A stretch of DNA of 64,000 nucleotides from Shigella phage Shf125875. Positions within the stretch are counted from its first letter, which is position 1. Every line of letters starts with the position of its first letter. Below are positions 19,265 to 64,000 of this stretch, piece after piece. The stretch lies in the sequence record KM407600; one strand, 5' to 3'. A model generated the notes under the pieces. That model was not told where the DNA came from, searched no databases, and saw only the letters and a list, made by a program, of their open reading frames with translations. Both the position numbers and the translations under genes were made by a program.

Positions 19265-19293
19265 AACGTTTTCCTCATGTTGTTGATTGGATG

Positions 19294-19323
19294 ATAGTAT
19301 CACACATCCATGTGTTTGTAAAC
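19294..19323 (-). promoter_or_regulatory. early promoter
   Basis: GTTTACA, 17 nt, TACTAT on the minus strand; upstream of ORF 18971..19264. Confidence 0.6.
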
Positions 19324-25601: not shown

Positions 25602-25642
25602 TTTATTCTCCAGATGTTTAAGTTGTTTGTTGGTACAGGTCT

Positions 25643-25671
25643 ATAATAACATAACCTGTACCAAAGTAAAC
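25643..25671 (-). promoter_or_regulatory. early promoter
   Basis: GTTTAC, 17 nt, TATTAT; upstream of ORF 25236..25601. Confidence 0.55.
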
Positions 25672-28266: not shown

Positions 28267-29258
28267 TATTGAACCTTATTAATATAAGTTAACAGCTCTT
28301 TAGTTTGTTCCCAACTGATGCACGCATCGGTAACGGAAACGCCATAGGACATATTATCAGAAATTTTTTGATTTCCTTCATGTAGGAACGATTCTATCAT
28401 AATTCCTTTGACCAAATCATTAGCTGCTAAATTTTTACCAATACCAATTTGATTGCTATAATGCCCATCAGCGTTTGCATGGCTACAGTCAACCATTACA
28501 TAATGATTCAGACCTACTGCCCTTGCTTTGTTAGAAGCTTCTTGAATATCAGAAGAATGATAGTTCGGGCCGTTGGTCCCGCCACGCAATACGATATGCG
28601 TATTCTGATTACCTTCAGCTTCAACAATGCCTACAGTACCATCGACGTCCATACCCATATACCGATGAGGCCAGGCGGCACTATACATCGCGTCTGTAGC
28701 TACTTTAATAGAACCATTGGTTGCGTTCTTGAAGCCTACGCACATCGGTAGACCTGAAGCAATTTCACGATGTGTCTGACTTTCAGTCGTACGGGCGCCA
28801 ATAGCAACCCATGAGAAAATACCAGAAAGATACTTAATCGTGAATGGGTCTAATACTTCAGTTGCTAATGGAAGTCCCATACGTAGAAGTTTACGACACA
28901 ATGTTCGTGCAACTATAAGACCGTGGTTCATATCAAAACTTCCGTCAAGATATGGATCATTTACAAGACCTTTCCAACCTACGGTAGTTCGAGGCTTTTC
29001 AAAATAAACGCGCATCACTAACAGAACATTAGGAAGACGAGTTTGAAGTTCAGCCAGACGTTTGCCGTATTCAACAGCAGCAATAGGGTCATGAATTGAA
29101 CAAGGACCTACAACAATAAGTTTGCGTGGGTCTTCACCGTTCATAATCGAATTAACTTGTTCGCGATGAGAAGCCACTTGTGATGCGTAAGCTTCCGACA
29201 AAGGAATAATCTCAGCCAGTTCTTTTGGAGAAATAAGTTTTCCGACGACAGGTAACAT
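28266..29258 (-). CDS. 3-deoxy-D-arabino-heptulosonate-7-phosphate (DAHP) synthase, class I AroG/F/H-like
   Basis: 330-aa ORF with DAHP synthase motifs GPCSIHD, RVYFEKPRTTVGWKGL, GARTTESQ, FKN, CSHAN, ESFLHEGNQ, TDACI; Cys, His, Glu and Asp metal ligands all present. Confidence 0.88.
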   Translation of the reverse strand: MLPVVGKLISPKELAEIIPLSEAYASQVASHREQVNSIMNGEDPRKLIVVGPCSIHDPIAAVEYGKRLAELQTRLPNVLLVMRVYFEKPRTTVGWKGLVNDPYLDGSFDMNHGLIVARTLCRKLLRMGLPLATEVLDPFTIKYLSGIFSWVAIGARTTESQTHREIASGLPMCVGFKNATNGSIKVATDAMYSAAWPHRYMGMDVDGTVGIVEAEGNQNTHIVLRGGTNGPNYHSSDIQEASNKARAVGLNHYVMVDCSHANADGHYSNQIGIGKNLAANDLVKGIMIESFLHEGNQKISDNMSYGVSVTDACISWEQTKELLTYINKVQ

Positions 29259-29378
29259 AACAATCCTTAGGAGATATAAACAGATTCTGATTCAACAATA
29301 CCTTTAACCGGATTAGACAGGCTAAGTTGGTAGTGCTCAGATTTATGACCATTCTCGATAGTAATGAGATAGCTCTCA

Positions 29379-29615: not shown

Positions 29616-29643
29616 TTCTATTTCCTCATTTGTTGGTAGAGTT

Positions 29644-29673
29644 ATAGTATCACAACTCCACCATGTTGTAAAT
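29644..29673 (-). promoter_or_regulatory. early promoter
   Basis: ATTTAC, 18 nt, TACTAT; upstream of ORF 29379..29615. Confidence 0.5.
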
Positions 29674-31741: not shown

Positions 31742-31769
31742 TTAGATTTCCTCAATTATCCATAGGAGC

Positions 31770-31799
31770 ATTATACTCTGCTCCTGAGAGTTTGTAAAC
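31770..31799 (-). promoter_or_regulatory. early promoter
   Basis: GTTTACA, 17 nt, TATAAT; upstream of ORF 31442..31741. Confidence 0.65.
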
Positions 31800-33175: not shown

Positions 33176-33205
33176 ATAGTAACACCATCCTTGGTGTTTG
33201 TAAAC
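33176..33205 (-). promoter_or_regulatory. early promoter for alc
   Basis: GTTTACA, 17 nt, TACTAT; predicted transcript start is upstream of Met22 of the alc ORF. Confidence 0.6.
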
Positions 33206-34357: not shown

Positions 34358-34387
34358 ATTGTACCACAATCCTTGTGGTATGTAAAC
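34358..34387 (-). promoter_or_regulatory. early promoter for rnlA
   Basis: GTTTACA, 17 nt, TACAAT; 26 nt upstream of the rnlA ATG. Confidence 0.6.
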
Positions 34388-34823: not shown

Positions 34824-36002
34824 TTAGAAATATTTTTTGTATGAATTGATTACATTTTGGTCTACATCATTATCAATTTGTGCGACAAGATAAGAACTGA
34901 TTTCAACTTCCTGAGGAGCTGCTTGAACTAAATCAGAGTTCAGATATTCACGAATCCAAGGATACGGATGCTTGGTCGGAGCATCAGTGATTGGGCATGG
35001 CAAACCGCACTGTTTCATACGAGACACAGTCAAGTAATCAACAAAAGCACACATACTCTGCGTATTGATACCTGGACATGTACCATCTTTAAAGAGGTGT
35101 GCAGCCCATTCCTTCTCTTGACTATTTACTTCCATAAAGATATCTACTGCTTCTTGCTCACACTCTTTAGCAATTTGAACCCATTCATCCCCATCAACAC
35201 CAAGTTGGAGCTGTCGAATAATGTACTGAGTGCCTTTAAGGTGGAGTTGTTCGTCACGAGCGATGAACTTCATAATCTTTGCATTACCTTCCATGATTTC
35301 CATGTTCTTATGGAAGTTGAAAGTACATGCAAAAGATACATAAAAACGAATAGCTTCTAAGGCGTTAATAACGTGTAAGCAGAGATAAAGAGACTTCATT
35401 AATGCACGTTTACATTCTTCCACATGCATAAGACTATTTGAATATGCATCCAAATCATATTCATTTTCGGAAAAACATTTAAAAATTTCTTTAGCATTTT
35501 CCCATTCACGTGTTTTAACTAGAACATCATCATAATATTTGCCGATTGATTCCGCACGTTTCATAATTGCTTCATCTAATACAATCTCATCAAATACCTT
35601 CGATGGATCAGTATAAAGATTTCGCATGATATGAGTATATGAACGAGAGTGAATGGTTTCACTGAATGTCCATGTAGCAACCCATGTATCTAATGAAGGG
35701 TCAGAAATCAGTGCCATAAGTACCGCAGATGGGGCCCTGCCTTGGATAGAATCTAATAATGATTGATACTTAAGATTGTTTGTAAAGATATCCTGTTGAA
35801 ACTGAGGAAGCTTATTGAACTGCGCAGAGTCCAACATCAAGTTTACCTCTTCCGGGCGCCAAAAAAACGACAATTGCTTTTCAATAAGCTCTTCAAAAAC
35901 TTTATGGCGTTGAATATCGTAACGCGCAAGGCCAAGACCGGAACCAAAGAACATTGGTTCATTCAAAACATCAACTTTTTGGGTATTAAAAACTGTACTC
36001 AT
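34824..36002 (-). CDS. nrdB: ribonucleotide reductase small subunit NrdB (no intron)
   Basis: 392-aa continuous ORF. Confidence 0.95.
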   Translation of the reverse strand: MSTVFNTQKVDVLNEPMFFGSGLGLARYDIQRHKVFEELIEKQLSFFWRPEEVNLMLDSAQFNKLPQFQQDIFTNNLKYQSLLDSIQGRAPSAVLMALISDPSLDTWVATWTFSETIHSRSYTHIMRNLYTDPSKVFDEIVLDEAIMKRAESIGKYYDDVLVKTREWENAKEIFKCFSENEYDLDAYSNSLMHVEECKRALMKSLYLCLHVINALEAIRFYVSFACTFNFHKNMEIMEGNAKIMKFIARDEQLHLKGTQYIIRQLQLGVDGDEWVQIAKECEQEAVDIFMEVNSQEKEWAAHLFKDGTCPGINTQSMCAFVDYLTVSRMKQCGLPCPITDAPTKHPYPWIREYLNSDLVQAAPQEVEISSYLVAQIDNDVDQNVINSYKKYF

Positions 36003-36052
36003 TATATTCTCTCAATAGTGACTCATCCATGAGTCAATTATAAACAAAATTC

Positions 36053-38308: not shown

Positions 38309-38395
38309 ATATTCCTCAGTATAGGTTGATAGACATTACTCCAAACGGGATAGTATTTATCCCGTTAATTTATTATACACTTTTAAACTGAAGCG

Positions 38396-39511: not shown

Positions 39512-39524
39512 TTAGCACCTATAA

Positions 39525-40482
<958 letters not shown>

Positions 40483-40764
40483 TCAAAACCCCTTTTCAAT
40501 AAACCATTCAGTGGCTTTATTAGCGTCAAAGAATAACTCTTCATATGTCTTTTCTTTGTTTTCAAAAACTGTCACACAAACACGTTGACATTCTCCACAG
40601 TATTCTTCTGACATACTCAAAGCGTCAGAAAACATTTCATTAAATTCACTTAAATCGGGATTATGCAATGCGTTAAAAATTGCATAATCGAATTCGTCAT
40701 TCATAAATTCAAATACAAAAATCATATTATTTTTCCTCAAACAGACTTTTTCACAATTTTCCAA
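40483..40764 (-). CDS. hypothetical protein (frd.1 position)
   Basis: 93-aa ORF. Confidence 0.45.
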   Translation of the reverse strand: MENCEKVCLRKNNMIFVFEFMNDEFDYAIFNALHNPDLSEFNEMFSDALSMSEEYCGECQRVCVTVFENKEKTYEELFFDANKATEWFIEKGF

Positions 40765-41013: not shown

Positions 41014-41043
41014 ACTATAACATAACCCTATCTTGTTATAAAC
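41014..41043 (-). promoter_or_regulatory. early promoter
   Basis: GTTTATA, 17 nt, TATAGT; upstream of ORF 40737..40979. Confidence 0.55.
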
Positions 41044-59109: not shown

Positions 59110-59138
59110 ATAATATCATGTTTGAAGCACATGTAAAC
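59110..59138 (-). promoter_or_regulatory. early promoter for the motA.1 ORF (near-duplicate of the motA promoter)
   Basis: GTTTACA, then TATTAT; about 40 bp nearly identical to 58782..58822. Confidence 0.6.
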
Positions 59139-59259: not shown

Positions 59260-60585
59260 TCAAAGTGCCTCCAAGTCTTTAGTGTACTCTGTCACAACAT
59301 CAGTAGACTTCCAATACTCATTTTCTTCTTTCTTAGCTTTAGCTTCTTCTGCTAGTTTACGTGCTTCGTCAGAAGTGATATGGAAGATGTTAAGACCTAC
59401 CAATTTATCGATATGTTCTTTATACATTTCGATTTGTGCTAGCTCTTCAGTCAAAGCTTTACGAGTCTTGCCTTGAATCACAATTTCGCCACTGATAACT
59501 TTTTTGATGAAGTGTGCCTTAGCAAAAGCCAGTTTAAATGCTTTTTCAGATTCAATGATTTTGTTATCAATACGTTTCTGAACGTAAGTCTTACGGACTT
59601 CAACAAAATCTTTGATTAAGTCCACTACGTTATCGTAGACCGTTAATTTACCCTTTTCATTAATCACTGTGATGTTTTGTGAACGACGTTCGATGAGACT
59701 AAAATCTTTCATGATTTTTTCATGACGTAGCTCTTCATCATCAGGAAGCGAGTACTCTTTACGGAACTTCACCTTAAACCCAAAACCGTGTTCACCACAA
59801 TCATCTTCCCATGAGATTAGACCTTTGTCTTCCAACGGGTCAAGAACCTTACTCACATACGTTTCACGGTCGAATTTATATGGGATTTCAGTTATCTGCA
59901 TTTGAGTGCGAGATGTGAACTTATATGTTCCGTGAATCTCATAACGCCCATCAACTTCATGCACTTCACCGCGGAATTCCGGGAATTCAACTTTTGGTTT
60001 AGTGACATTTTTACCTTGAAGAGCTTGTAATACAGCCTTTTTGACCGATTTAAAACTATGAGGCAGAATATTTGTTGCGTAACCGGTTGCAATACCAGAG
60101 ACACCGTTCAAAAGAACTGTCGGAATAATAGGAAGATAGAATTTTGGTGGAACGTGTTCTTTATCTTCATGAGCTGGAGCATATTCGGTATCTTTATAGA
60201 CATTATAGAAATTTTTGCTTACACGAGCAAAAATATAACGAGATGCTGCAGCTTTTTGGACTGTTCGAGAACCAAAGTTGCCTTGACCATCTAATAGTGG
60301 ATAGTTGTTATTCCATGTGTTAGCCATCAATGCACCTGCATCTTGTGCAGAAGATTCACCATGGTGATAACCTAAATCTGCAACACCGCCTGCAATTGAC
60401 GCAAGTTTATGAAATTTTTCTTTATTACCACGAGCCAAATCTAATGCACGATGAACCACAAAACGTTGAACCGGCTTAAATCCATCAATCATGTTTGGGA
60501 TTGCACGGTTTTCAACGGTGTACATAGCATATGCTAAGGCTTCGTTATCAATAATACTTTTTAGATTACGAGAATTCAATTGCAT
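59260..60585 (-). CDS. 52: topoisomerase II medium subunit gp52
   Basis: 441-aa ORF recognised as gp52-like. Confidence 0.95.
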   Translation of the reverse strand: MQLNSRNLKSIIDNEALAYAMYTVENRAIPNMIDGFKPVQRFVVHRALDLARGNKEKFHKLASIAGGVADLGYHHGESSAQDAGALMANTWNNNYPLLDGQGNFGSRTVQKAAASRYIFARVSKNFYNVYKDTEYAPAHEDKEHVPPKFYLPIIPTVLLNGVSGIATGYATNILPHSFKSVKKAVLQALQGKNVTKPKVEFPEFRGEVHEVDGRYEIHGTYKFTSRTQMQITEIPYKFDRETYVSKVLDPLEDKGLISWEDDCGEHGFGFKVKFRKEYSLPDDEELRHEKIMKDFSLIERRSQNITVINEKGKLTVYDNVVDLIKDFVEVRKTYVQKRIDNKIIESEKAFKLAFAKAHFIKKVISGEIVIQGKTRKALTEELAQIEMYKEHIDKLVGLNIFHITSDEARKLAEEAKAKKEENEYWKSTDVVTEYTKDLEAL

Positions 60586-60589
60586 ATTT

Positions 60590-60730
60590 TCACCATATTA
60601 ATGAACGAATAACTATTATAACATCTGAAATGAAAAGCACTACTTGGATTAGTCCAAACATCACACCGTAGTACCGAATCGTAAACAACAACAAGAGCCC
60701 GAAGGCTCCTGCTAAGATTTTCTTAATCAT
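60590..60730 (-). CDS. small hydrophobic peptide (46 aa), doubtful
   Basis: Hand-translated MIKKILAGAFGLLLLFTIRYYGVMFGLIQVVLFISDVIIVIRSLIW; overlaps a UUCG hairpin and a TGnTATAAT promoter element, so it may be non-coding. Confidence 0.25.
   Translation of the reverse strand: MIKKILAGAFGLLLLFTIRYYGVMFGLIQVVLFISDVIIVIRSLIW
60612..60623 (-). promoter_or_regulatory. extended -10 promoter candidate (TGTTATAAT) for gene 52
   Basis: TGnTATAAT on the minus strand about 30 nt upstream of the 52 ATG; a TGCTT motif lies further upstream but is mis-spaced for a canonical MotA box. Confidence 0.35.
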
Positions 60731-60876
60731 TACTCGCCTTTTAACACATTAAGAAGAGCTAAGACCGCTAAGGTACCTTGTGATACGGCCTGTTGAAATA
60801 CCGTTGTTTCGCCTGTAACTAAAGTGTTAACGAATAAAAACGACCAACACAACAATGCAATAATCCATGATACCAT
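60730..60876 (-). CDS. small hydrophobic membrane peptide (48 aa; ac position)
   Basis: Hand-translated MVSWIIALLCWSFLFVNTLVTGETTVFQQAVSQGTLAVLALLNVLKGE; GAGG Shine-Dalgarno 8 nt upstream. Confidence 0.45.
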   Translation of the reverse strand: MVSWIIALLCWSFLFVNTLVTGETTVFQQAVSQGTLAVLALLNVLKGE

Positions 60877-60889
60877 TTTAATTACCTCA

Positions 60890-60921
60890 CAAATAAATTA
60901 AAGGCCTAACTTAATAGGCCT
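60890..60921 (-). terminator. hairpin plus U-rich tract after ndd
   Basis: aggcct-aacttaat-aggcct followed on the minus strand by uaauuuauuug. Confidence 0.45.
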
Positions 60922-60928
60922 GTATAAA

Positions 60929-61375
60929 TTAGTAACTCTGCAGAATAAATTTGAAATTATCGGCCAGAAGACGGTTCATTTCAGTGAGTGTTTGATATTC
61001 TGATGTATGGTTGCGAGTGAATGCCAGAGCCAATTGACCTTTACCATAACCAGTAGTCAGGGGTTTCATGTTCTTGGCTGAAACAAAGATTACGTCATAT
61101 TCAATATTATTAGTGCCCATGGTACGGGCTAGTTGCGAACGGCCTTGACGAATGTGAGAAAGAATTGCATCCAACCCTTGTTTAGAACGTTGACGTCCTA
61201 CAAAGAATCGTGCTGCTACTTGTCGCCAGTCAGATGAACCTTTAACAAAGAAGTAAAAACCTTCACGAGAACGAAACTCTTTAGAAACTTCAGAACCGTA
61301 TTCGCCATTACGAACTACTGCAACAACTTCACCGCCAACTGCCAGAAGGTCTTTACGAGTTAAATATTTGGACAT
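60929..61375 (-). CDS. ndd: Ndd nucleoid disruption protein
   Basis: 148-aa ORF recognised as T4 Ndd-like. Confidence 0.9.
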
Positions 61376-61419
61376 GCTAATTTCCTCAATTGATTAATGT
61401 TTTTGTAATCCATGAGAGC

Positions 61420-61449
61420 ATTATACTCTGCTCTCAAGAGTTTGTACAA
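61420..61449 (-). promoter_or_regulatory. early promoter for ndd
   Basis: TTGTACA, 17 nt, TATAAT; near-duplicate of the promoter at 31770..31799. Confidence 0.6.
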
Positions 61450-61451
61450 TT

Positions 61452-61652
61452 TTATTCGGCTATATCAGAACGTTCAAAAAGCTCTTCAACAGTTAAACAT
61501 TCAGTGTCATCTTCAATAAAGAATCGAGTCCAACACGTTGGGGCGATACAGTTATGAGTTTGTCCGGCGATAGAAGCTACACGAATAAGCTGCTGACCAT
61601 TATTCAGAACAAATTTTTCACCAATTTCAACATCTTTAAAAAGCTTAGCCAT
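61452..61652 (-). CDS. hypothetical early protein (ndd.1 position)
   Basis: 66-aa ORF with early promoter at 61681-61710. Confidence 0.45.
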   Translation of the reverse strand: MAKLFKDVEIGEKFVLNNGQQLIRVASIAGQTHNCIAPTCWTRFFIEDDTECLTVEELFERSDIAE

Positions 61653-61680
61653 TTTGTGTTCCTCATGTTTCAGTAGGACT

Positions 61681-61710
61681 ACTATACCATAATCCTACCG
61701 TGATGTAAAC
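61681..61710 (-). promoter_or_regulatory. early promoter
   Basis: GTTTACA, 17 nt, TATAGT; upstream of ORF 61452..61652. Confidence 0.6.
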
Positions 61711-61902
61711 AATTAAATTACATTAAAATATGTTAAAGCCAGCCATGTTCCAGTGAACGAACATGCAATGTAAAAACCAGTATCACAAATTGTTTTTAGT
61801 ACAATAAGAAGTGCATTTTTCATAAGTACCTCAACACAATTGAAAATATTATACAAATCATTGGGATACTAAGCAACCATATTCCAATCCACATTTTAGA
61901 GC

Positions 61903-62166
61903 TCATATCTCAACTTCCGCGAGTTCCATATATCCTTTGTTGATAACCTCTTTAAGGTCTTTAGAAAGAATAACACCAAAATGGTCATTCATATGTCCAT
62001 TAACTAAACGAGTTATTTCGGCTTCGGATGACATATAAGGCACGTCTGAGTCCCAATGAGATAGACCTAAATGAGTATAAATCATCCCTTCGTCATCTGC
62101 AGTGTTGTACATTGAAACAAACTCACCAGTCACTTTATGTTTTGCGTAGAAAAATTTAAATTTCAT
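61903..62166 (-). CDS. hypothetical early protein
   Basis: 87-aa ORF with early promoter at 62193-62222. Confidence 0.45.
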   Translation of the reverse strand: MKFKFFYAKHKVTGEFVSMYNTADDEGMIYTHLGLSHWDSDVPYMSSEAEITRLVNGHMNDHFGVILSKDLKEVINKGYMELAEVEI

Positions 62167-62192
62167 GATGTTATCCTCTTTTAGATAGGACT

Positions 62193-62222
62193 ACTATATC
62201 ATAGTCCTACTTAGTTGTAAAC
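62193..62222 (-). promoter_or_regulatory. early promoter
   Basis: GTTTACA, 17 nt, TATAGT; upstream of ORF 61903..62166. Confidence 0.6.
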
Positions 62223-62234
62223 ACTTTTATGAAA

Positions 62235-62792
62235 TTAAAGATGAAGATACCACCCGTTGTAGTTGCTCTTGCGGACGATTTTCTTTAGGTCTTCATGGTC
62301 TCCAACGAACTTTATAGAATAAGAGAAGACGTCAGGTGAGGTTTCTTTGACATTCAATATAATAATACAGTCAGCGACTCGATGATTAAGGAAGGGCCCT
62401 ATGTTGATTCCGTTGCCACCCGGATAATCACCACTGTATCCTGTGGTAACAGAAATCCATTTAGAATCCATCTGATGTGTCTTGACTTCTACACGAATTC
62501 CACAATATTTGGGATGGGCTAACACGTCCCACGCATACGTGTACGGGTCTTCTACATCTTCAATACCTTTATTAACATATCCGTCTAGCCAATTTGCTAC
62601 TACATACTCTGCAAAGACTGCAACCTTACAACGTCGAACTACATCTTCTTTGTTTTGGTCTGGATTTTGGCTCAGGGAATACCGAGCGGTGTCAGCAATC
62701 TTCACTTTCATTTCACTAGTCAAAAACTCATTCGACAGGATAAATGTCGGAAGATTCTTCAGTCTCAACAGTCCCAAGTTCGTCTTTACCAT
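62235..62792 (-). CDS. denB: endonuclease IV (DenB), putative
   Basis: Track ORF trimmed to Met22 (185 aa, the T4 DenB size) with an AGGT Shine-Dalgarno; assignment rests on position and size only. Confidence 0.55.
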   Translation of the reverse strand: MVKTNLGLLRLKNLPTFILSNEFLTSEMKVKIADTARYSLSQNPDQNKEDVVRRCKVAVFAEYVVANWLDGYVNKGIEDVEDPYTYAWDVLAHPKYCGIRVEVKTHQMDSKWISVTTGYSGDYPGGNGINIGPFLNHRVADCIIILNVKETSPDVFSYSIKFVGDHEDLKKIVRKSNYNGWYLHL

Positions 62793-63015
62793 AGATACCT
62801 CTGATGTGTAGTTCGCCAAAATAAATGCGGTCTCCTTCTTCAAGATAGTTAGCATCTACCGGTGGGATTTCAATAACAACTTCGTCGCATTCTAACCAGC
62901 CGTAGTGTGCATCACCAGGATGTTTTACCAATTTAGCACAATAAACTGATTTACACTTATGATGACCACGAAGATTAGCAATTTTGGATTCTGATACGTC
63001 AAATGGATGAATCAT
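62728..63015 (-). CDS. hypothetical protein
   Basis: Track ORF trimmed to Met18; overlaps the proposed denB start by 65 nt in another frame. Confidence 0.35.
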   Translation of the reverse strand: MIHPFDVSESKIANLRGHHKCKSVYCAKLVKHPGDAHYGWLECDEVVIEIPPVDANYLEEGDRIYFGELHIRGIYGKDELGTVETEESSDIYPVE

Positions 63016-63025
63016 AATTACCCCT

Positions 63026-63050
63026 AAAGAAAAAGGGGACCGAAGTCCCC
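63026..63050 (-). terminator. terminator after rIIB
   Basis: Minus strand reads ggggacttcggtcccc then ttttttcttt. Confidence 0.75.
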
Positions 63051-63055
63051 AATTA

Positions 63056-63991
63056 TTATTCTGCAAATAATTCAGTAACGTCTGAAATTACTTCATAACG
63101 ACAAGTACGCATCTTAGCATCACCATAGTCAACTGGGATGGATACAACATCACGTGGATGAACTTTAACCTTAACAACTTTATCTGAGCTTGAACCAAAG
63201 TGGCGAATATAAGATTTAGCACAAACGTGGAGACCGCGAGAACAGGTTTGAGTATCATCGTCGTTAACTCGAGTACGAGGCATTGAAACAACTTTACCTG
63301 GGGAGTTATCAAATGTACCACTATAGCAGTCTAAATAGTCTTTACGAACTACTTTCCACGCATAGAAATACCCATCTTCAGTGATTTCAATATCGTTTGC
63401 AACCAAGAAGTCGAATAAACGTTGTACAGCTTTTTCGCTTGGGTTTTCTAACAGGTTTTCAAGGAACGGCAGATAGAATTTAAAGTCTTCGCCTTTTTCC
63501 ATGGAATCAATAATACGATTAACCAGTCCTGAACGAATTTCTATACCTTGATAAAATAAACTACCACCTTCAATAGTAACATTACCGTCAACAAACTTAG
63601 TAATAGCTTTCTTGATGTTAATAAGTTCGACAGCTTTACTAAGGTTTCCTGCGACCAGATTAGCTTTAATTTCTTCAAAATTTGCATGACTTGATGGGGT
63701 CGCATTGTATGCTACGCGTCCTTCAATGATTGAAATAAATTTAGATGACGCGTTCCATACGATTTCTGGACGATGACCTGTAATAATAGGTTCATTATTT
63801 TCTGGGACCTGTTCTTCGTCTTCAAATTCAGCGGCTTTCTCTTCAGCTTTAAAATTCTTAACAATCTTACGAAGAGTGTCGGTGGAAATATTGAAGTAAT
63901 CAGCAATTTCCTGACGAGTCCATTGGCCTGATTTAACCAGTCCGTAAGCTTCTAACTGTTCTTCTTGGGACAAGCATTTGATATTGTACAT
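63056..63991 (-). CDS. rIIB: rIIB membrane-associated protein
   Basis: 311-aa ORF recognised as T4 rIIB-like. Confidence 0.93.
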   Translation of the reverse strand: MYNIKCLSQEEQLEAYGLVKSGQWTRQEIADYFNISTDTLRKIVKNFKAEEKAAEFEDEEQVPENNEPIITGHRPEIVWNASSKFISIIEGRVAYNATPSSHANFEEIKANLVAGNLSKAVELINIKKAITKFVDGNVTIEGGSLFYQGIEIRSGLVNRIIDSMEKGEDFKFYLPFLENLLENPSEKAVQRLFDFLVANDIEITEDGYFYAWKVVRKDYLDCYSGTFDNSPGKVVSMPRTRVNDDDTQTCSRGLHVCAKSYIRHFGSSSDKVVKVKVHPRDVVSIPVDYGDAKMRTCRYEVISDVTELFAE

Positions 63992-64000
63992 AATGTTTCC

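Follow-up and report, generated by a model that had tools for sequence, protein, structure and literature searches.

Many early promoters of Shigella phage Shf125875 carry a stem-loop within the promoter itself, such that the −10 hexamer or the spacer preceding it lies between the arms of an inverted repeat, and these hairpins are the Mosigvirus version of the known PeSL architecture. The hairpin observation is confirmed and statistically solid in the window, which is the whole stretch of 64,000 nucleotides from sequence record KM407600 that was analyzed. The evidence comes from enrichment over chance, covariation, strand asymmetry, placement relative to the start site and mutual exclusion with strong hairpins located upstream. 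We hypothesize that these are PeSL-type cassettes in which the stem-loop acts as RNA, namely as a unit-ending attenuator or 3′ stabilizer in read-through transcripts, a reading that we hold to be reasonably probable.

Positions 60000–64000 of the window share 99.4% identity with Escherichia phage CCU7 and 96–98% with many Mosigvirus (RB69/JS09-type) T4-like coliphages. The genes across this segment include rIIB, denB, ndd, ac and a topoisomerase gene; its early genes lie on the minus strand, and all promoters under discussion read on the minus strand. Within the window, whose A+T content averages ~0.62, 17 early-type promoters were curated, each consisting of GTTTACA (or TTGTACA), a spacer of 16–17 nt and a TAnnnT −10 element, followed by a Shine-Dalgarno sequence and an ATG 25–45 nt on. 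A near-complete genome was composed of the window plus the remainder of the 99%-identical phage CCU7, and a stricter rule (at most two hexamer mismatches plus Shine-Dalgarno, ATG and ORF) yielded 42 promoters in this genome and 35 in the whole T4 genome. Promoter annotation was looked for in the T4 records NC_000866 and AF158101 and none is present, so the T4 promoters were predicted by pattern. The mean A+T content of the 25 nt before the −35 element is 0.73 across the 42 promoters and 0.80 at the focal promoter. Rfam covariance models at the gathering score gave zero matches over the whole window, and a repeat search over the whole window returned mostly short palindromes and was uninformative.

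The focal promoter lies between denB and an ORF encoding 87 amino acids, and is composed of the following elements.

62216–62222, minus strand: −35 element GTTTACA, beginning 12 nt past the denB stop codon (62237–62235)
62185–62210, minus strand: hairpin with 5′ arm GTAGGACTAT (62210–62201), loop GATATA (62200–62195) and 3′ arm GTAGTCCTAT (62194–62185)
62193–62198, minus strand: −10 element TATAGT, part in the hairpin loop and part in the top of the 3′ arm
61903–62166, minus strand: downstream ORF of 87 amino acids served by the focal promoter, with its ATG at 62166–62164 and the Shine-Dalgarno sequence AGAGG ~8 nt upstream

The elements therefore read in the order GTTTACA-actaa-GTAGGACTAT-gatata-GTAGTCCTAT-ctaaaagagg...ATG, with a 17-nt spacer (GTTTACA-N17-TATAGT). 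The perfect Watson-Crick core of the hairpin spans 62186–62209, and its RNA fold is predicted at −13.2 kcal/mol with a z-score of −5.5. The start site would fall at ~62186, 7 nt downstream of the −10 element. Loci related through the downstream 87-amino-acid protein number only three and are near-identical, hence they carry little covariation information.

How often would such repeats be expected by chance? Repeats were scored within the spacer, the −10 element and the next 14 nt, and the control consisted of shuffled spacer and downstream bases. The raw counts are inflated by paralogous copies and by a partly self-complementary consensus; read with that in mind, perfect repeats of at least 6 bp are found at 9 of the 17 window promoters versus 1.16 in shuffles (maximum 6 of 3000), and repeats of at least 7 bp at 7 of the 17 versus 0.28 expected (maximum 3). 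Random 37-nt windows contain a repeat of at least 6 bp with a probability of 0.078, which gives a binomial P of 1.5e-6 for the window count. Among the 42 promoters of the near-complete genome, repeats of at least 6, 7 and 8 bp are found at 17 (3.4 expected), 13 (0.89) and 8 (0.21, maximum 3 of 2000), respectively, and 13–14 of these repeats straddle the −10 element. The corresponding values for the 35 T4 promoters are 10 (3.2 expected), 8 (0.88) and 6 (0.21), with stems of 10–14 bp at the promoters before dmd, mobD.2, ipI, ipII and 30.7, and thus the feature is present in T4 itself too. The promoters are not independent, since the arms TAGGRYTAT/GTAGYCCTA are common to three window copies and eight genome copies, and column shuffles give a baseline pairing of 46–55% for the partly self-complementary consensus. 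A dispersed 24-nt motif, TAGGRYTATGNTATARTAGYCCTA, occurs in three copies in the window, where none is expected, and in eight copies in the genome.

These counts agree with an earlier note on this DNA, which had claimed inverted repeats at no fewer than eight of about 15 early promoters, a promoter number close to the 17 curated here, and had proposed the genome-wide comparison with shuffled controls. All eight repeats that it cited were recovered at their coordinates, all on the minus strand and all in early-type promoters; seven straddle the −10 hexamer, and the eighth (34364–34378) lies in the spacer and abuts it. In addition to the focal hairpin, the hairpin promoters of the window are as follows.

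61671–61700, minus strand: hairpin in the promoter upstream of an ndd.1-like ORF, CGGTAGGATTAT/GTAGTCCTACTG, 12 bp including G·U pairs, −16.1 kcal/mol
61413–61436, minus strand: hairpin in the promoter upstream of ndd, TGAGAGCA/TGCTCTCA, 8 bp, with the −10 element TATAAT in the loop
41005–41032, minus strand: hairpin GATAGGGTTAT/GTAGCCCTATC, 11 bp including G·U pairs, −16.3 kcal/mol, with compensatory changes in orthologues
34362–34380, minus strand: spacer-type hairpin upstream of rnlA, TACCACAA/TTGTGGTA, its 3′ arm overlapping the first two −10 bases
33181–33198, minus strand: spacer-type hairpin AACACCA/TGGTGTT (6-bp core ACACCA/TGGTGT), absent from the earlier list
31764–31785, minus strand: hairpin AGGAGCA/TGCTCCT around the −10 element TATAAT
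29634–29663, minus strand: hairpin TGGTGGAGTTGTG/TATAACTCTACCA, 13 bp with G·U pairs, absent from the earlier list
25630–25664, minus strand: hairpin upstream of a 30.7-like gene, TTGGTACAGGTT/GACCTGTACCAA, 11–12 bp, −17.9 kcal/mol
19288–19310, minus strand: hairpin TGGATG/CATCCA, 6 bp, around the −10 element TACTAT

The hairpin at 25630–25664 is kept in SP18 and, at the promoter at 129895, in T4; for the one at 29634–29663 the orthologous T4 element is the early promoter located between cd.2 and cd.3. At this same T4 promoter, record NC_000866 notes 14 bp (133300–133313) as an "inverted complement of previously reported sequence". That stretch covers the −10 region and loop flanked by the arms, and the discrepancy reflects either an error in the older sequencing of the hairpin or a genuine inversion of the loop between its inverted repeats.

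The placement of the hairpins follows a common geometry. In nine of the 13–14 straddling cases the dyad axis lies between the first and second bases of the −10 element (−12/−11), and a scan over all possible axes peaks at the same position. The stems comprise 6–13 bp, or 10–13 bp once sense-strand G·U pairs are allowed, and their predicted RNA folds range from −12 to −18 kcal/mol, with z-scores versus shuffles between −4 and −8. When +1 is placed 7 nt after the −10 element according to standard sigma-70 geometry, the 3′ arm ends at most ~2 nt from this predicted start. Therefore, the hairpin could form only in transcripts that read through from upstream, and the predicted folds differ accordingly: the promoter's own transcripts fold at ~0 kcal/mol, versus −12 to −18 kcal/mol for read-through RNA. 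In the predicted read-through fold of the cited hairpins, pairing involves 0% of the Shine-Dalgarno bases, leaving the Shine-Dalgarno sequence free in both kinds of transcript.

A mechanism that would fit this geometry is that a strong sigma-70 early promoter also encodes a stem-loop in its free positions, namely those of the spacer and those between −10 and +1. The stem-loop would form only in transcripts started further upstream that read through the promoter, and the promoter's own transcript, starting at the foot of the 3′ arm, would carry no hairpin. In the putative read-through RNA the hairpin would mark the end of the upstream unit, probably with weak attenuation of transcription, and a 3′-terminal hairpin would probably shield the upstream cistron from 3′ exonucleases. 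The leader of the downstream gene would be unstructured in both kinds of transcript. The hairpin thus appears to be written into the only promoter positions that are free to vary; the alternative locations would be constrained, as the region upstream of −35 must stay AT-rich and a hairpin downstream of +1 would enter the promoter's own leader.

A different arrangement is observed at ~38345–38377 (minus strand), where a promoter-like site (TATAAT) is followed by a hairpin, GGGATAaatacTATCCC, downstream of the expected start in the leader of a 751-amino-acid nrdA-like ORF. Unlike the other hairpins, this one would be inside the promoter's own transcript. In a second architecture, the promoter spacer (TCTCCTC...) and the downstream gene's Shine-Dalgarno region form a perfect duplex of 10–14 bp, with the predicted start in the loop; this arrangement occurs outside the window in CCU7 segments L013 (40609 and 43817) and L014 (35208 and 47930) as well as at the T4 promoter at 65390. 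Here the ribosome-binding site would be masked in read-through RNA but not in RNA started at the promoter itself. Such duplexes of at least 8 bp number four cases versus 0.24 expected (maximum 3 of 1000 shuffles). A count of minimum-free-energy folds for general Shine-Dalgarno sequestration at early promoters gave 10 versus 8.7 under a shuffled-spacer null, which is not above chance; the exceptions are a handful of very long duplexes. Hairpin-free promoters show a conserved AGACCTATCAAC after the −10 element, from −6 to +6 (e.g., 59109–59098, 41464–41453 and 3942–3931); this stretch has weak complementarity to the TGATA located in the −10 element or ahead of it, which gives a higher background of 5-bp "repeats".

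Is the pairing itself selected? Orthologous promoters were compared in five other Mosigviruses, the Gaprivervirus SP18 and T4. Across these relatives the pair at 31775 changes from A-U through G·U to G-C, TAGGG/CCCTA at 41019 becomes TGGGG/TCCCA in SP18, and orthologues show T-A to C-G at 29649 and U·G to A-U at 25648. A broader comparison aligned, without gaps, the full set of 59 promoters of the near-complete genome and T4 that have a 17-nt spacer, picked regardless of pairing. For the helix centered at −12/−11, pairing, double changes and the covariation score are above column shuffles (0–2 of 500 reach the observed values), and all three exceed every slid control. Double compensatory changes number 57 versus 39.5 in shuffles, which is above each of the 500 shuffles. 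A scan of IMG/VR with the pattern GTTTACA-N17-TATAGTAG gave 95 unique matches, in which all seven free outer pairs were formed in 11 of 27 promoter-context matches versus 0 of 68 elsewhere (Mann-Whitney p=0.0014); the arms of these matches are diverse, differing partly through G·U. The earlier observation that arms vary between promoters while complementarity is kept is thereby borne out, its inference of selection on pairing was right, and the compensatory changes that it had suggested seeking in orthologous promoters were found, in a comparison that included T4, via G·U intermediates.

The wobble pairs indicate which strand is involved. Inside the stems, read on the sense strand, there are 9 G·T versus 0 A·C pairs, and at the pair next to the loop 23 G·T versus 1 A·C, whereas the first unpaired position outside the stem shows 8 G·T and 9 A·C. 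The sense strand also folds better than the antisense strand (e.g., −16.1 versus −7.1 kcal/mol; Wilcoxon p=0.035), and the hairpin at 29634–29663 folds at −16.9 kcal/mol on the sense strand versus −8.1 kcal/mol on the antisense strand. These data point to a structure formed by one strand, the sense strand, with RNA as the simplest case, and not to a protein site or a two-stranded cruciform.

Could the hairpins be ordinary terminators of the upstream unit? The sense-strand tails after the 3′ arm (CTAAAAGA, AAACATGA, AAATAAAA and similar) are A-rich, with 0–3 T in the next 8 nt, versus at least 5 T of 8, UUCG tetraloops and T-runs in nearby canonical terminators, which the scan found at 63050–63035, 60921–60902 and 60714–60689. 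The same type of scan flags the focal hairpin on the antisense strand only. Because no U-rich tract follows the 3′ arm, efficient intrinsic termination is not expected, and a canonical intrinsic terminator is ruled out by the missing U-tract behind the stem; the stems are also less GC-rich than those of such terminators. A relationship with terminators is seen in their distribution: among 77 promoters of the two genomes, a strong embedded hairpin is present at 20, a strong upstream hairpin at 19 and both at 0 (Fisher p=0.0013), where strong denotes −11 kcal/mol or lower and upstream denotes the 60 nt before −35, a result sensitive to the threshold chosen (p=0.10 when −10 kcal/mol is used). The strong upstream hairpins are mostly UUCG-tetraloop terminators with a U-tract. 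The embedded hairpins therefore look like alternative 3′-end or attenuator elements for the upstream unit. UUCG terminators (e.g., GGGAGACTTCGGTCTCCC-TTTT) are located 20–40 nt before the −35 element of promoters without an embedded hairpin, at the promoters at window positions 59115, 58794, 41470 and 26092 (minus strand) and at seven more in CCU7 segments. A literature search for genome-wide 3′-end mapping in T4-like phages found nothing usable, and the same holds for 5′-end and half-life data.

GenBank record OL960577.1 (Mosigvirus SA35RD), annotated independently, lists rho-independent terminators at 1554–1587, 1815–1848 and 2327–2360, which correspond to these same hairpins at window positions 61403–61436, 61664–61697 and 62176–62209, and no early promoter is annotated at these three hairpin sites. 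Such terminator labels on U-tract-free hairpins are likely a systematic annotation quirk in T4-like genomes, and the consequence for annotation is that hairpins are deposited as rho-independent terminators despite the missing U-tract and the promoters that they overlap are left unannotated.

Alternatively, the cassettes could act as DNA, serving as dispersed homologous repeats for recombination and gene shuffling (the "modular shuffling" of PeSLs) with the hairpin being secondary. The dispersed TAGGRYTATGNTATARTAGYCCTA family would suit such a function with its three window and eight genome copies, and mini-circle formation and recombination between PeSLs have been published for RB49/phi1 (PMC2839356). 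However, homology needs no intramolecular complementarity, so the compensatory changes and the G·U-only asymmetry would go unexplained. Moreover, indel breakpoints in a 17-kb stretch of five Mosigviruses lie apart from the hairpin promoters: in the one region compared, window 25–42 kb, the distance is at least 270 nt. As the main explanation recombination is considered unlikely, and it is compatible with the RNA role, such that the two can coexist. The Mosigvirus indels and replacements between 25000 and 42000 map to ~26620, 28269–29364 (where an aldolase gene is absent in mar005P1), 35393–36048 (a homing endonuclease insertion in mogra) and 39514–40747; no junction falls at a hairpin promoter.

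A second alternative places the action in the promoter DNA, where a cruciform or non-template hairpin at the position at which sigma-70 melting starts (−12/−11) would tune opening or strength, or where the repeat would be the site of a dimeric regulator. The virion RNA polymerase of phage N4 is known to use hairpin-form promoters whose center lies near −11, DNA hairpins tolerate G·T mismatches too, and the dyad stands in fixed register with the −10 element in the majority of straddling cases given above. Several observations oppose this possibility, which we regard as improbable: ~60% of otherwise similar early promoters are without a repeat, and exclusion with strong upstream hairpins that are mostly canonical terminators would be unexpected for a promoter-tuning device. 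A site for one shared dimeric regulator is unlikely given at least seven unrelated arm sequences, and a symmetric cruciform is disfavored because the wobbles become A·C mismatches on the antisense strand, which folds more weakly and would weaken a two-stranded structure. A narrower variant, in which a non-template single-stranded DNA stem-loop at −12/−11 extrudes on supercoiled phage DNA and tunes opening or escape at these very strong promoters as a host-polymerase analogue of the N4 hairpin promoters, is considered very improbable, even though a hairpin of sense-strand DNA accounts for the G·T-only wobbles no less well than RNA does. Among the three roles offered by the earlier note, the hairpin of read-through transcripts is therefore favored by the G·U/A·C asymmetry, the sense-strand fold, the 3′ arm at the predicted start and the exclusion with upstream hairpins, and the dimeric regulator and cruciform roles are not.

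Finally, the idea that the repeats are a by-product of a self-complementary consensus and the copying of one cassette, with no selection on pairing, draws on the column-shuffle baseline of 46–55%, on the three innermost pairs being consensus bases and on one repeat family holding many hairpins, but it is largely refuted by the covariation controls (double compensatory changes above all 500 shuffles), by orthologues that keep pairing through substitutions, by the wobble asymmetry and by arms unrelated to the consensus (GGAGCA, TGGATG, GGTACAGG and AGGATGAT here; GACAAGACTA and TGATGAGGTA in T4), and is thus most improbable.

If the RNA reading is correct, a compact phage genome would place two signals on one 45-nt stretch, a promoter on the DNA and a unit-ending hairpin on the upstream RNA. 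How does this compare with known systems? Like canonical intrinsic terminators, the hairpins would provide a stable RNA stem-loop at the end of a transcription unit, and they appear to substitute for them, a view based on their mutual exclusion with strong upstream hairpins. REP-type hairpins of bacterial mRNAs are intercistronic stem-loops without a U-tract that stabilize 3′ ends by stopping 3′-to-5′ exonucleases. The hairpins described here resemble them as intercistronic stem-loops without a U-tract that could by analogy stabilize the upstream message, but they differ in being embedded in promoters and unrelated in sequence. In the leaders of T4 e, soc, 49 and I-TevI, a late promoter lies inside a hairpin, and this hairpin blocks translation by sequestering the Shine-Dalgarno sequence or AUG (PMC3014915). 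As in those leaders, read-through transcripts would fold, and transcripts from the internal promoter, lacking the 5′ arm, would stay unfolded; unlike them, the promoter here is early and the hairpin ends at +1, leaving the Shine-Dalgarno sequence free.

The closest relatives are the PeSL cassettes, and the earlier note's suggestion that the repeats were undescribed for T4 early promoters does not hold, since such cassettes have been published for RB49/phi1 (PMC2839356) and for T4/PST and KVP40/nt-1 (PMC4122927). In RB49/phi1, Arbiol et al. (2010) found cassettes that combine an early promoter with a stem-loop lying mostly between −35 and −10 or overlapping −10; they noted G-T pairs in the stems and, using a lacZ fusion, measured terminator-like activity for one stem-loop of RB49 (PMC2839356). 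Comeau et al. (2014) added PeSLs from T4/PST and KVP40/nt-1 and referred to previous findings at the locus of the T4 internal proteins (PMC4122927). For RB69, the genome paper of 2006 gives 57 predicted early promoters together with TransTerm terminators, with promoter hairpins or inverted repeats unmentioned (PMC1524935). Experimental promoter and terminator activity concerns selected RB49/phi1 PeSLs only (PMC2839356), with the RNA-level role so far tested on a single RB49 stem-loop. The elements described here share with PeSLs a sigma-70-type early promoter that is intergenic, has AT-rich sequence ahead of it and leads to a Shine-Dalgarno sequence and ATG, a stable stem-loop within the promoter, many dispersed copies conserved beyond the hexamers, G·T pairs and the proposed role as terminator or attenuator of upstream transcription. 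The stems of RB49/phi1 have the form G(n)-loop-C(n), whereas those found here are heterogeneous and rich in A+T (TAGGACTAT, among others). The published T4/PST figure shows stem-loops just upstream of the promoter, whereas here and in the T4 scan many are embedded, with the axis at −12/−11. The association of PeSLs with indel junctions is not seen here in the region compared (25–42 kb, five Mosigviruses), and the phage pairs of the PeSL papers do not include Mosigvirus or RB69-type phages (PMC2839356, PMC4122927). To the PeSL architecture the Mosigvirus hairpins thus add some new detail, namely a fixed axis, a stem ending at +1, a sense-strand wobble asymmetry and exclusion with strong upstream hairpins, and these features provide the PeSL model with testable predictions.
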